Of a DNA stretch of 64,000 nucleotides, positions 11,102 to 22,066 are shown in pieces. The translations under genes and the position numbers were made by a program. Within the stretch, counting starts at the first letter, position 1; every line of letters begins with the position of its first letter. Source of the stretch: Elusimicrobiales bacterium (GTDB lineage Bacteria > Elusimicrobiota > Elusimicrobia > Elusimicrobiales > UBA9959). Below the pieces are notes generated by a model, which ran no database searches, was not told where the DNA came from, and saw nothing but the letters and a program-made list of their open reading frames with translations. The stretch covers positions 44,036 to 108,035 of the forward strand of contig JBFXJL010000007.1 of assembly GCA_050174915.1 (NCBI GenBank), read 5' to 3'.

Positions 11102-14100
11102 ATGATGCTTAACTCCCTTAAGACCCTGCTTGCCTTCCTTGTTTTCGCTTCCCCTTCCGGCCTGGCCGCCGCCCCGCACTATTACACGGACCCTTTCTCC
11201 AAGTTCCAGACCCCGGTTAAGGCGGTAAAAAACCTGCCCGAAGGCTCCGCGCAATGGAAGACTCTCGCCGCCGGCCTGGCGGCTGACCCGCTCTTCGCTT
11301 CGCTCGGCCTCGACAAACTTTCCTACACCGCCGGCAACCAGCTCGCCTACGACTTCGACCTGCGGCTGGGCGAGATAGACCTGGACCTCAAGGGCACCCT
11401 TACCTTCGACGCGGCCGCGGCCGAAGGCCAGCCCGTGGCCACGCTAACCTCCGCGGCCCAGTCCCGCACGGCGGCCGACCTGGTGGACATAGGCGCGCTG
11501 CACGCCACCTCTGCCAGCCTGGAAGTCGCCATCTATAAGGAAGGCGGCGACTACAAGATCTACGCCCGGGTCATACCTAGGTTCACCAATTACAACAAGC
11601 CCCCGCTGCCCTCCCTGCTGCTCTCCAAGGGTAAAGGCGGCCTGGACTATACCGTCATAGGCGGCAACCTGGCGCTAAAGGATATCTTTCCTTTCGCTGC
11701 GCAGGTCCCGCTCTACAAGCAGTTCGCCTTCGAGAGCCTCTCCAAGAGCGGCACCACGCTCACGGTCAAAGGCACGGTCGGCGGCCGCGCCGTAACGGCC
11801 GCCGGCGACACCGTGAAGGACACGCTGTTCGTGACCGGCGACGGCCTGACGGCCGCCGATTTCTACCCGGAGACCGCCGCCCTGCCCCTGCTTAACGGTT
11901 TTGCTTTCGACAGCTTTTCCCTGACCGCCGCCGGCGAGGCCGTGACCGGCCGCCTGAACGGCAAGAAGGTCTCCGTCTCCCGCGGGGCCGACAAGAAGTC
12001 CTTCGCCGTGACCGGCGACGACATCAAGCTGGAAGATATCATTCCCGCGGCGTCCCAGGTGCCCTGCGTCAACGCCCTGGCCCTGGACAGCGTGCTGGGG
12101 TCCGACACTAGTCTCGCCGTCTCCGGCCGGGTCAACGGTAAAACCGTGGCCGTCTCCGGTTCCCTGGCGGACAATAAAGTGGAAATGACCGGGCCCGGCC
12201 TGAGCCTGCCCTCCTGCATCCCGCTGTCCCTCAATATTCCTTTCCTCAAGCTCTTCAACTTCGGCGGCCTGTTCAGCTGGCCGGACCGGCTGGAAGTGGA
12301 CGGCACCGTGAACGGCAAGGATGTGAAAGTGGTGTGGATCTTCGCCCCCAACACCGTTACCGTGACCGGCGAGAGCATAAAGCTCGGCGACCTCATCCCC
12401 GCGGCCGCCAAAGAGCCCATGCTGCAGAGTTTCGCCTTCCTGAGCCTGGACTATTCCAAGGCCGCGCTGAAAGTGAACGGCACGGTCAGCGGCAAGGCCA
12501 TCACCGTTACGCAGGACAACGCCGCCAAGACCTTCACGGTCTCCGGCGCCGGCCTGACGCTGGCCGACTTCATCCCCGAAACCGCCGGCATAACCTACCT
12601 GCGCAGGTTCGACCTTAATTCGGTGCGGCAGCGCCCGGGCGGCGTGCTGGTGGCCGGCGACGTGGCCGGCAAGGCCGTCACGGTGGAGAGCGACAGGGCC
12701 GCCGGTTCTTTTACGGTGACCGGCGAGGGGCTGAAGCTGGCCGACTTCGTGCCGGAAGCCTCGCAGATAACTTTCCTCGACGCTTTCGCGCTCGACGGCG
12801 TGCGCAGCACGCCCGGCGAGTTCGTGGTAACCGGCAAGGTCAACAACAAGGCCGTGCTGGTGGACGACCACCTGACCAGCAATATCTTCACGGTGACCGG
12901 CGACGGCCTCAAGCTCCAGGACTTCTTCCCGGAGAGCAAGGACGTGCCCGCGCTCAACAACTTCGCTTTTGAGAGCCTCACCCATACCGCCGACGGCGTG
13001 ACCGTGACCGGCAAGGTCAACGGCAAGGCCGTCCTGGTCGCCCGCGCTATCGGGGCCGACACCTTTACGGTCAAGGGCGACGCCCTCAAGCTCGCGGACT
13101 TCGTGCCCGCCGCGGCCAAGGTGTCCTATCTCAATAATTTCTCCTTCCTCTCGCTGACCTGGCATCCCGGCATCCTCGAAGTGGCCGGCACCGTGAACGC
13201 CAAGAACGTCACGGTAACGCTCGACAAGGCGGCCAAGACCTACACCGCCTCCGGCTCGGGGCTGCAGCTGGCCGATTTCGTGCCCGAGGCGGCCCGGCTG
13301 CCCTACCTCGCCCGCTTCGACCTGACCCGTGTGCAGGAGCGCCCCGACGGCGTACTGGTGGCCGGCGACGTGGCCGGCAAGGCCGTGAGCGTGGACTATA
13401 ACAGGACCGCCGCCTCTTTCAAAGTGACCGGCGACGGCCTGCAGCTCAAGGATTTCATCCCGCAGGCGGCCGGGGTGGGCTACCTCGACAACTTCAAGTT
13501 CGAAAGCCTGCTCTACTCGGCCGCCGCCATCGAAGTCTCCGGCAAGGTAAACGACAAGGGCGTGACGGTAAAAAAGACCCTGAGCGCCCCGGACTTTTCA
13601 GTCACCGGCGACGACCTGAAACTGGCGGACTTCGTGCCCGGCACCGAGCAGGTGCCCTGCGTCAACGACTTCGCCCTGGACCGCGTGTGGCGGTCCGCCG
13701 AAGAGCTCGGCATAGCCGGAAAGGTGAACGGCAAGGCCGTCTCCATCTCCGATTCCTTCGCCGACAACAGGGTGGAAATGAGCGGCCCGGGCCTGAGCCT
13801 GCCTGCCTGCCTGCCGCTGTCGCTCAACCTGCCCTTCCTGAACCTTTTCAGCTTCGGCAGCCTGTTCCATTGGCCCGACCGCCTGGAAGTGGACGGCACG
13901 CTGAACGGCAAGGACGTGAAGCTGGTCTGGATCTTCGCTCCGAACACCGTGACGGTGACCGGCGACAGCATAAAGCTGGCCGACGCTATCCCCGACGCCG
14001 CGCGGGTGCCTTTCCTCAACGGCTTCGCCTTCCTCGAGCTGGATTATTCCAGGGAGCAGCTGGCCGTGAGCGGCACGATGCGGGGCAAGGCCGTCAGCGT

Positions 14101-20908: not shown

Positions 20909-22066
20909 ATGAACCGCGCCGGCCTCGCCCTCGCCGCGCTGCTGCTGGCCCCGCCGGGCGCGGCGGCCGCCGGCGCCCCGCTCGGCCAGGCGCTGGCCCT
21001 GCAGGAGGCTTTCTCGGCCGCCGCCTCCTCCGCCGCGGCCGCCGTGGTGGCGGTGGCCGCGGTGCAGGATGGCCATGCCTCTCCCGCGGAAGAATTCCTC
21101 TTCTGGGGCTCCGAAGAATTCCTCGAACAATCCGTCTACGCCGGCGGCGGCGCCGCCCCTGGAGCCGCACCGCGCGGGCGAAGGGTGCCCGTTTCCGGTT
21201 CCGGCTTCGTCGTCCATCCCGACGGCTATATCCTTACAAGTGAGCATGTAGTGCGCGGGACTACGGAGGTCTCCGTGATCTTCCCCGGAGAGCCTGCCAG
21301 GAATCTGGCCGGCCGGGTTATCTCGCGCGACGCCGCCGCGGACCTGGCCGTGATCAAGGTGGCGGCCGGGCGGGTTTTGCCCGTGGTCAGTCTGGGCGAC
21401 TCGGACGGCGTGCGCGCCGGGCAATGGAGCATAGCGCTCGGCAGCCCGGCCGGGCTGGAGCAGGCCGTGACGGTCGGCGTCATTTCCGCCCCGCGGCAGA
21501 AGATCTCTATCGGGAAAAAGGTTTACCGCGGCGCCATACAGACAGACGCGGCCATCAATCCCGGCAATTCCGGCGGCCCGCTGCTGAACATACGCGGCGA
21601 GGTAATAGGGGTGAACATGGCCGGCTACGCCCCCGGCGGCGAATATGCCGGCATAGGTTTCGCTATCCCGGTCAACCGCGCCAAGGAATTGTTGGCCCGG
21701 GCGCGGGACGGCGCTCCGCGCGGCTGGATAGGCGCCGTGACGGAGGACGACCTCGACGCCGCCGCGGCCGCCGTCTACGGCCTGCCGGACGCGCGCGGCG
21801 CGATGCTGCTGCGCGTGTTGCCGGGCCAGCCCGCCGACAAGGCGGGGCTGCTGCGCGGCGACGTGATAAGGGAATTCGACGGGAAGTTGATTGACAACAA
21901 TGCCGGCCTGCTGGCCGCCGTGGCCGCCGCCGCCCCCGGCAAGAAAGTGAAAGTGCGGCTGATAAGGCGCCGCGCGAGAGTGACGGCCGAGATAGCGGTG
22001 AGGGCCGCCCCGGACGCCGCCGGGGAGCCCGGCCTGAACGAGCTGGACCGGGAAGCCGCTTTCTAA
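20909..22066 (+). CDS. HtrA/DegP-family serine protease, trypsin domain plus one PDZ
   Basis: Signal peptide; GSGF, TSEHVV, DLAVI, IQTDAAINPGNSGGPL; C-terminal PADKAGLLRGDVI PDZ. Confidence 0.92.
   Translation: MNRAGLALAALLLAPPGAAAAGAPLGQALALQEAFSAAASSAAAAVVAVAAVQDGHASPAEEFLFWGSEEFLEQSVYAGGGAAPGAAPRGRRVPVSGSGFVVHPDGYILTSEHVVRGTTEVSVIFPGEPARNLAGRVISRDAAADLAVIKVAAGRVLPVVSLGDSDGVRAGQWSIALGSPAGLEQAVTVGVISAPRQKISIGKKVYRGAIQTDAAINPGNSGGPLLNIRGEVIGVNMAGYAPGGEYAGIGFAIPVNRAKELLARARDGAPRGWIGAVTEDDLDAAAAAVYGLPDARGAMLLRVLPGQPADKAGLLRGDVIREFDGKLIDNNAGLLAAVAAAAPGKKVKVRLIRRRARVTAEIAVRAAPDAAGEPGLNELDREAAF

Follow-up and report, generated by a model that had tools for sequence, protein, structure and literature searches.

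A lectin-tipped giant protein and an adjoining tetratricopeptide-repeat secretin: a candidate two-gene export module in an Elusimicrobiales bacterium

Introduction

Secretins are known only as the outer-membrane gates of large ATP-driven machines, namely the system for type II secretion (T2SS), the type IV pilus (T4P), the Tad system and the type III secretion system (T3SS), or of filamentous phage. GspD, the secretin of the T2SS, takes up substrates that arrive through Sec and fold in the periplasm first; the phage secretin pIV contains an N0 and an N3 domain and acts together with a phage inner-membrane ATPase complex. Giant adhesins are assigned to the type I, type V or type IX secretion systems. 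In this study, we analysed a stretch of 64,000 nucleotides from an Elusimicrobiales bacterium (the window; C7:44036-108035 of a 3.25-Mb genome, 65% G+C), in which three consecutive genes encode a very large protein with C-terminal lectin domains (the giant protein), a secretin preceded by tetratricopeptide repeats (TPRs; the TPR-secretin) and an HtrA-type protease. We think it likely that the first two genes form a module that consists of a cargo and a dedicated, self-piloted secretin, and that the protease was added in this Elusimicrobiales lineage. The three genes are as follows.

11102..18997, + strand: giant protein gene; 2631 amino acids (aa) plus stop; a lectin-tipped repeat protein with a predicted Sec signal
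18994..20907, + strand: gene for the TPR-secretin, a predicted lipoprotein; 637 aa plus stop
20909..22066, + strand: gene for an HtrA/DegP-type periplasmic serine protease with one PDZ domain; 385 aa; a lineage-specific accessory

GspD gave the best match to the TPR-secretin in both Foldseek and NCBIfam searches (TIGR02517), and the two proteins share the C-terminal secretin fold. However, the TPR-secretin scores far below the GspD cut-off and lacks the N0 and Secretin_N domains. Moreover, its unit contains no gspC-M genes, pseudopilins or ATPase, and has one dedicated cargo gene joined to the secretin gene by a start/stop overlap. PilQ of the T4P differs in its AMIN and N0 domains and its pilMNOP neighbourhood, both of which are missing here. 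The RcpA/TadD pair of the Tad system differs in that no RcpC/CpaB, TadZ/CpaE or CpaF gene is conserved beside our pair; the Tad cluster of this genome is at a separate locus (L110). As for SctC of the T3SS, the TPR-secretin falls below the TIGR02516 cut-off. Two-partner secretion (type Vb) shares another aspect of the arrangement, a huge, repeat-rich, Sec-exported exoprotein encoded beside a dedicated outer-membrane transporter, with no inner-membrane or ATPase part. In contrast to that system, the transporter here is a predicted secretin multimer and not an Omp85/POTRA barrel, and what is conserved of the cargo lies towards its C-terminus rather than its N-terminus. Pfam detected neither a TPS domain nor a member of the Omp85/POTRA families in any of the three proteins.

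Other known systems show further likenesses. The liposecretin HxcQ has an N-terminal lipid anchor, like the one predicted for the TPR-secretin. In the TPR pilotins (PilW/PilF, Tgl, and TadD with RcpA), a TPR lipoprotein module is tied to a secretin; here, however, the TPRs and the secretin are one polypeptide, the Tgl and PilW scores are low and no pilus genes accompany the pair. In BcsC, PgaA and AlgK/AlgE, a periplasmic TPR scaffold is followed by an outer-membrane channel, whereas in our case a secretin takes the place of the monomeric beta-barrel porin, and the partner gene encodes the giant protein in place of a polysaccharide synthase. Finally, phage pIV is a short secretin found outside type IV filament and T3SS clusters, and its structure (7ofh) matched that of the TPR-secretin; it differs in that no phage genes were seen near our unit, either in a scan of the genes of the window or in neighbour clustering. 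The pair combines the logic of two-partner secretion, a T2SS-like channel, the predicted targeting of liposecretins or TPR pilotins and the domain order of BcsC and PgaA, and it departs from the defining features of each family. A search of open full text, to which subscription-only papers and supplements did not belong, gave no description of a giant lectin protein that is paired with a fused TPR-secretin.

Results and discussion

The giant gene and the secretin gene occur together

A scan of one genome per species returned 281 relatives of the secretin, and linkage was assessed in the best 80 of the 281. The best secretin segment had at least 40% identity in 35 loci, two of which (L041 and L083) start inside the secretin gene and are not assessable. 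In all of the other 33, a homologue of the giant gene adjoins the secretin gene. In 31 of them, the homologue is co-oriented and directly upstream, at a distance of 0-262 nt; in the other two, both from Ferrovibrio, it is convergent and directly downstream. The linked loci come from Elusimicrobia, Sulfurospirillum and other Campylobacterales (Campylobacterota), Desulfobacterota, Halobacteriovorax (Bdellovibrionota), Rhodospirillales (Alphaproteobacteria) and a Gammaproteobacterium. The original prediction had been of a passenger-plus-secretin module outside T2SS, T4P, Tad and T3SS clusters; this synteny across several phyla, together with the other secretins of the genome described below, supports it.

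The two genes are also present and absent together. A secretin orthologue (71-93% identity) was found in seven of 24 genomes of the same genus, and the giant gene in exactly the same seven and in none of the other 33 genomes searched (17 of the genus and 16 of other families). One of the genomes from another family (G026) has only a TPR-secretin paralogue of 33% identity. In all seven sister genomes, the giant gene ends at the start of the secretin gene. The giant homologues are full-length and 62-92% identical in these genomes, which indicates that the three genes are real and not chance open reading frames (ORFs), and are 22-54% identical in other phyla. Pairwise identities of the secretin and the giant protein co-vary, with a Pearson coefficient of 0.85 across 19 loci and 0.81 across the 15 loci that remain without close kin. 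None of 2000 permutations reached the observed value in either set, although shared ancestry contributes to the correlation.

All-against-all clustering of the neighbours in 22 loci revealed only two widely common genes, present in 20 and 17 loci; the next cluster had six. The shortfall of the secretin in this count comes in part from long antisense ORFs that displace the secretin ORF in high-GC loci. Beyond lineage-specific neighbours, the clustering revealed no third conserved gene.

The TPR-secretin is a secretin of a separate class

The TPR-secretin is organized as follows.

19054..19056, + strand: lipobox cysteine C21 (LPAFAG-C), read by eye
19096..19791, + strand: TPR superhelix (aa 35-266), then a disordered linker (aa 268-312), from the structural model
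19945..20634, + strand: secretin beta-domain (aa 318-547), with no N0 or N1-N3 domains before it
20662..20901, + strand: C-terminal helical tail (aa 557-636) with a conserved aromatic terminus; low model confidence

Its C-terminal half belongs to the Secretin family (PF00263, aa 394-546, 102 bits against a cut-off of 27.5), and a TPR_19 match (28.8 bits) covers aa 118-168. Pfam detected no STN, N0, Secretin_N or AMIN domain, and the model passes directly from the TPRs through the linker to the beta core. In this model, the superhelix contains 13 helices with block values of the predicted local distance difference test (pLDDT) mostly between 80 and 93, whereas the linker (aa 268-312) is below 50. 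In structure searches, the TPR domain matched the CTPR and MamA structures. The beta-domain matched GspD (E 2.6e-15), RcpA in the RcpA-TadD structure 8odn (5.3e-13), pIV (7ofh, 3.8e-10), InvG and PilQ, the whole set spanning E values of 1e-10 to 1e-15. Across 21 members of the family from different phyla, 45 columns spread over the TPR and secretin halves are invariant, C21 is nearly so, and the C-terminus has the consensus ...GALKRxLxFLYY. The lipobox, although read by eye, suggests that the TPR-secretin is a lipoprotein.

None of the named secretin families accommodates this protein. Its best NCBIfam match was to GspD (TIGR02517), with 80.1 bits against a cut-off of 351.35, followed by SctC (TIGR02516, 66.2 against 238.45), PilQ (TIGR02515, 65.2 against 284.35) and MshL (56 against 250). 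The TPRs scored far below the pilotin cut-offs as well (Tgl, NF033762, 23.8 against 225; PilW, TIGR02521, 21.4 against 154), and the match to the BcsC TPRs was weak (19.4 bits). The genome has four secretin loci, of which the TPR-secretin is the fourth and the other three are conventional. In BLASTP comparisons, it reached 33-49 bits with the other three, whereas those three reached 65-145 bits with one another. We conclude that the TPR-secretin is a genuine secretin that forms its own class, a placement that rests on the BLASTP comparison within its own genome and on the NCBIfam cut-offs.

On another contig, a pilMNOPQ cluster encodes a canonical PilQ that has the AMIN, STN/N0 and Secretin_N domains and whose gene is directly preceded by pilM, an ORF of the size of pilN that has no PilN match, pilO and an ORF assigned to pilP by size. 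The T2SS-like secretin has STN and Secretin_N domains and adjoins GspF and N-methyl pseudopilins. The Tad-like secretin (L110) is 240 aa long and adjoins RcpC/CpaB and a CpaE-CpaF-like ATPase. Thus, the genome does have separate PilQ-type and GspD-type secretins, a point that had been singled out for checking. With at least 11 T2SSE-family ATPase matches over cut-off, four secretins and eight N-methyl pilin matches over cut-off in 3.25 Mb, it is unusually rich in type IV filament machines.

The giant protein is a predicted lectin-tipped exoprotein of an unnamed family

The following parts of the giant protein could be distinguished.

11102..11173, + strand: predicted Sec signal peptide (approximately aa 1-24), MMLNSLKTLLAFLVFASPSGLAAA, read by eye
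11579..14521, + strand: approximately 17 tandem 59-aa repeats (aa ~160-1140; motif spacing 59, 59, 59, 118, 59...)
15119..17104, + strand: conserved, beta-rich central domain that marks the family (aa 1340-2001); strands at model residues 1-662
17114..18136, + strand: long helical hairpin or coiled-coil, Cys pair, small alpha/beta insert and further helices (aa 2005-2345)
18140..18994, + strand: C-terminal ricin-type beta-trefoil lectin region (aa 2347-2631; PF00652, PF14200, ThreeFoil)

Pfam identified Ricin_B_lectin (PF00652) in two stretches of aa 2347-2510 (49.6 bits against a cut-off of 29) and nothing else over cut-off. The lectin end also matched PF14200 (39.7 bits) and the ThreeFoil structure 3pg0 (E 2.7e-6). 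The AlphaFold model of the giant segment has a mean pLDDT of 76 and contains three long helices of 86, 36 and 47 residues (H666-751, H758-793 and H798-844), as well as a conserved Cys pair, of which C752 is nearly invariant and C761 invariant in A2. The predicted signal peptide, the Cys pair and the terminal lectins give the protein an extracytoplasmic look, and its homologues likewise begin with a basic and then a hydrophobic stretch. These homologues are between 1642 and 2983 or more aa long, with a variable number of N-terminal repeats; the part that is conserved is aa ~1350-2631.

The central region resembles nothing that has been named. Foldseek returned nothing from the PDB at E<=1e-3, and the TM scores did not exceed 0.13; the weak, non-significant resemblances (all E >1e-3) were to colicins and Tc toxins. 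The A2 profile found only coiled-coil noise among PDB sequences (best E 0.0054), and Pfam found nothing significant in any of the 20 central-region members. Matches in the ESM Atlas were to unnamed clusters only; the central region scored 0.88-0.90 against them, and the repeats did not exceed 0.80. Neither Pfam nor the profile scans detected a catalytic or pore-forming family in the giant protein. A complex prediction for aa 1400-2079 of the giant protein with the TPRs of the secretin (aa 30-270) scored 0.00, which counts neither way on binding.

At E<=0.001, the central-domain profile recovered representatives of 1281 clusters (at 50% identity); a threshold of 1e-10 left 770 of them and one of 1e-30 left 304. 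In their sources, members are named either 'hypothetical' or 'ricin-type lectin domain protein'. We picked 21 diverse representatives from 150 listed, and among them 14 have ricin-type lectins, four F5/8-type-C, four Tectonin, two hemopexin and one DM9; CDtoxinA-type lectin matches occur in five of the 21. Judged by these domains, the family is best described as lectin-tipped giant exoproteins. In one distant metagenome protein of 2152 aa (P0129), which is 26% identical across 78% of the central region, the lectins are replaced by a Scabin-like/Pertussis_S1 ADP-ribosyltransferase domain at the C-terminus, and this domain match hints that the central scaffold can carry a toxin module.

The protease is an accessory of one lineage

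The third protein shows the features of HtrA/DegP, with Trypsin_2 (101.5 bits) and PDZ_2 (43.6 bits) matches that both exceed their cut-offs. Read by eye, it has a signal-like N-terminus and the His-Asp-Ser motifs TSEHV, DLAVIK and GNSGGP. Its TIGR02037 score is 295 bits against a cut-off of 416, a shortfall that is consistent with one PDZ domain in place of two. HtrA had been put forward as a component of the system, which is supported only in part. Within the genus, an HtrA gene lies directly 3' of the secretin gene in all 12 Elusimicrobiales-genus loci that have downstream sequence; among the seven sister genomes, it is present in the six that extend past the secretin (the seventh, L023, stops at the contig end). 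Outside the genus, none of the 21 other giant-linked loci has an HtrA gene at this position. The protease is therefore a lineage-specific accessory and not part of the core.

In most sister loci (L018:13976-14794, L019:13930-14730 and others), the protease gene encodes approximately 266-290 aa and matches the protease domain only (query aa 96-266). The match continues through the PDZ domain in the window and its closest relative only (L017, from the same record as L032).

The unit is bounded and is independent of pilBTC

On the + strand, the genes of the window are ordered recN, gltX, an 801-aa Pro/Ala-rich ORF, pilB, pilT, pilC, giant, secretin and HtrA; beyond these lie the convergent ogt, uvrC, murJ and holA. 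The features that border the unit are as follows.

6790..10871, + strand: pilB, pilT, pilC; neighbours outside the module
10889..10914, + strand: intrinsic-terminator-like hairpin and T-run just 3' of the pilC stop; upstream boundary of the unit
10939..10966, + strand: sigma-70-like promoter candidate 5' of the giant gene (consensus match only)
22063..22455, - strand: ogt (6-O-methylguanine DNA methyltransferase), convergent; downstream boundary, outside the module

The layout agrees with what had been described from the sequence. The three genes are co-oriented and closely joined: the TGA stop of the giant gene (18995-18997) overlaps the ATG of the secretin gene (18994-18996) in an ATGA at 18994-18997, and the secretin TAG stop (20905-20907) is followed by a single c (20908) and then by the HtrA ATG at 20909. 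The HtrA stop (22064-22066) overlaps the end of the convergent ogt by 4 nt. Upstream, the predicted terminator between pilBTC and the unit corresponds to a hairpin of 11 pairs, seven of them G-C, followed by TTTTCGTTTT. Terminator-like sites are no more frequent in the region than in shuffled sequences (10 observed, 10.3 in shuffles); thus, it is only the strength of this particular site that counts. The promoter candidate (TCAACA-16-TATCAT) has nine of 12 consensus matches and a TG before the second hexamer; two promoter-like sites were counted in the region against 0.9 expected. The domain content of the products, a 2631-aa protein with a Sec signal read by eye, a secretin and a periplasmic protease, is also as predicted, and no pseudopilin, GspC/L/M, PilMNOP, Omp85 or TpsB-type gene was found inside the three-gene unit. 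N_methyl pilin matches are missing from the window as a whole, and the nearest is approximately 35 kb past its end.

The suggestion that the neighbouring PilB, PilT and PilC supply energy was not supported. pilC lies upstream of the giant gene in only two of the 12 genus-level loci with a complete giant gene and upstream sequence (L032 and L040), and the distant lineages do not have it there at all. Where a sister genome lacks the module (L114), pilC is approximately 70 nt from the convergent ogt, where the window has the 11.2-kb trio; in two further sister genomes, 0.9-1.8 kb separate pilC and ogt. Thus, pilBTC is present at this site with or without the module, and its adjacency is incidental. 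The trio is flanked by pilBTC and ogt in two genomes; the flanking pairs elsewhere are histidine kinase/helicase, outer-membrane-protein-like gene/alaS, pyruvate kinase/ABC-F gene and PBP1/HD-domain gene. Judging by these varied flanks and by the empty site in L114, the trio behaves as one insertable unit that is not tied to pilBTC.

Distant TPR-secretins lie beside other exported-looking proteins

Among the distant TPR-secretins (30-38% identity), 10 of 45 have a piece of the giant central domain within the locus. Others are preceded by proteins with signal peptides, as judged by eye, of the FG-GAP/ASPIC, beta-gamma-crystallin and ricin-lectin types. The occurrence of distant TPR-secretins after other exported-looking proteins fits a general cargo-plus-secretin logic.

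Two relatives (L026:10812-13769 and L027:2947-6024) have a Zn-dependent phospholipase-C-like gene directly 5' of a paralogous TPR-liposecretin (31-33% identity). From its gene content, this is a second and different pairing of a putative cargo with a TPR-secretin. In 13 loci, mostly from Alpha- and Betaproteobacteria (L073, L078, L081, L084-L087, L089, L090, L092 and L104-L106), a protein of approximately 330 aa precedes a distant TPR-secretin (~30-36% identity). Two of these upstream proteins were scanned (L084 and L087), and both are TAXI-type (NMT1_3) periplasmic binding proteins. Two loci (L085:2107-5700 and L106:8130-11770) contain two TPR-secretin genes in tandem.

A model for the module and its alternatives

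Our proposal of a two-gene module draws directly on the gene structures, the domain content of the products, the lack of N-domains in the TPR-secretin, the three other secretins of the genome, the linkage and co-distribution of the two genes and their independence of pilBTC. We infer Sec export of the giant protein and lipidation of the secretin from signals read by eye, and in the model that follows we infer the oligomeric pore, the direction of transport, the passage of the cargo, the role of the TPRs and the source of energy. We propose that Sec would export the 2631-aa giant protein to the periplasm through its N-terminal signal peptide. The 637-aa secretin would be lipidated at C21, sorted to the outer membrane and oligomerized into a secretin ring, with its built-in TPR domain standing in for the separate TPR lipoproteins that act as pilotins. 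As the protein has no N0 or N1-N3 domains, this ring would be unable to dock on an inner-membrane platform, a pseudopilus or an ATPase. The giant protein may then cross the ring or lodge in it, so that its C-terminal ricin-type lectins are exposed outside. There they may bind glycans, the protein being an adhesin or, alternatively, a lectin-directed toxin for which they do the targeting. In the Elusimicrobiales lineage, the HtrA-like protease may hold, trim or remove giant protein that has stalled in the periplasm.

If this model is true, it would describe a new route by which very large proteins leave the cell without an inner-membrane machine, and it would reopen the questions of how a secretin gate opens and what powers passage through it. 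It would also give a biological context to the unannotated family of 1281 clusters and to a distinct clade of secretins in several hundred species. Carriers in culture include Sulfurospirillum arcachonense, Roseospirillum parvum, Halarcobacter ebronensis and Hydrogenimonas thermophila, which makes direct testing feasible.

Several points weigh against this proposal. For the known secretins, opening depends on the push of a pilus, pseudopilus, needle or phage, delivered by an ATP-driven inner-membrane machine, and nothing in the unit supplies such a force. T2SSE-family ATPases were found in all five of the distant carrier genomes tested, no ATPase-free carrier being found among them, and there are at least 11 in the source genome. 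As the carriers keep these ATPases, a machine whose genes lie elsewhere may still help. From the conserved adjacency one learns that the two genes are functionally linked but not in which direction, and the giant protein could be an accessory of the pore rather than its substrate. The two structural models are of moderate confidence (pLDDT 67 and 76), and the signal peptide and lipobox were judged by eye. Lastly, HtrA is missing outside one genus and most sister loci match the protease domain only; the role given to it in the model is thus weakly grounded.

The chief alternative makes the giant protein an accessory of the pore in place of a substrate. In that case, the secretin would export or import another material, for example polysaccharide or slime, DNA or a small protein, and the giant protein would assist it in the periplasm or at the surface as a scaffold, a plug or a glycan-binding sheath. 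Lectin domains do bind sugars, adjacency alone is silent on direction, and the order of an N-terminal TPR domain and a C-terminal outer-membrane channel parallels that of the TPR-plus-porin polysaccharide exporters PgaA and AlgK. Secretins are also reported to be necessary for slime secretion (PMC12475490). However, neighbour clustering found only the two genes in common and no conserved glycosyltransferase, synthase or polysaccharide gene beside the pair. The wide variation in repeat number (1642 to >2983 aa) is hard to fit to a fixed part of a machine, and the pairing of distant TPR-secretins with unrelated, secreted-looking proteins fits cargo better. We therefore regard an accessory role as unlikely. 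Our doubt is similar about a variant of the proposed module, in which the export route is the same but the giant protein acts as a lectin-targeted toxin or bacteriocin instead of an adhesin. Its lectins would attach to glycans of a target cell, its beta-rich part and long helices would be membrane-active or translocating, and the secretin would serve as a release pore. The ADP-ribosyltransferase domain that takes the place of the lectins in P0129, the CDtoxinA-type lectins in five of the 21 representatives, the predatory habit of the carrier Halobacteriovorax and the weak resemblances to colicins and Tc toxins all point this way. Yet those resemblances are non-significant, the giant protein has no detected catalytic or pore-forming family, the neighbour clustering gave no immunity-like gene, and long tandem repeats are more typical of adhesins.

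It is very unlikely that the TPR-secretin is an alternative gate of a type IV filament machine, either that of the adjacent PilB, PilT and PilC or another, with the giant protein exported as in a T2SS or displayed on a pilus. pilBTC does lie immediately 5' in the window and in two sister genomes, the genome has several pilins beside its many T2SSE-family ATPases, and each of the five distant carriers has at least one such ATPase. Against this, a strong terminator separates pilC from the unit, pilC is upstream in only two of 12 genus-level loci and in no distant ones, and at the site that lacks the module pilC adjoins ogt. Moreover, the TPR-secretin lacks N0 and Secretin_N, the domains that contact GspC or PilP in T2SS and T4P structures, and the genome already has one secretin by pilMNOP, one by pseudopilins and GspF and one by RcpC and CpaF. 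In Roseospirillum parvum, a single T2SSE-family match exceeds the cut-off, with one more below it; from its extent (profile positions 4-275), we judge it to be CpaF-like. Still more remote is the idea that the adjacency has no functional meaning, the two genes being a selfish or mobile pair or unrelated genes carried together. The patchy distribution (seven of 24 genus genomes) and the varied insertion contexts do indicate mobility. However, adjacency holds in 33 of 33 assessable loci across phyla, with secretin identity down to 40% and giant identity of approximately 22-30%, the start and stop codons overlap, and the presence and absence of the two genes match exactly.

A dedicated cargo-plus-secretin module may also be one instance of something wider, and we offer this extension more tentatively than the module itself, as a substantial possibility that is still somewhat less likely than not. 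A minimal, secretin-only route, consisting of a TPR-liposecretin with no N0-N3 domains, pseudopilus or ATPase, would translocate or display an adjacent Sec-exported partner. The giant proteins would be one class of cargo (approximately 1300 clusters), and the wider family of 281 loci would pair with phospholipase-C-like, FG-GAP/ASPIC, beta-gamma-crystallin, ricin-lectin and TAXI-type cargoes. Such a route would be a secretin-based analogue of two-partner secretion that has spread horizontally through at least five phyla.

Other features of the window

For the 801-aa ORF between gltX and pilB (window 4270-6675, + strand), neither Pfam nor NCBIfam gave a match. Inspection by eye shows a GYF-like start, a single hydrophobic segment and long stretches rich in Pro, Ala and Gln. 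PilB (6790-8559, + strand) carries an N-terminal MshEN/c-di-GMP-binding motif (PF05157, 77.9 bits; NF053729, 67.9 bits against a cut-off of 38), which suggests that this pilus ATPase may be under the control of c-di-GMP.

The window and many of the high-GC loci contain long spurious ORFs, either antisense or as upstream extensions of real genes. Those of the window are 460-635 aa long, those of L048 reach 2756 aa, and such ORFs could mislead automatic gene calling. The secretin frame of the window, for instance, is open from 18436 to 20907, and its biological start is the ATG at 18994. A 3284-aa ORF in L048 was considered as a fusion of the giant protein with the secretin and was rejected: the giant gene has a frame of its own (566-8674), and what extends to 3284 aa is again a secretin frame that is open upstream.

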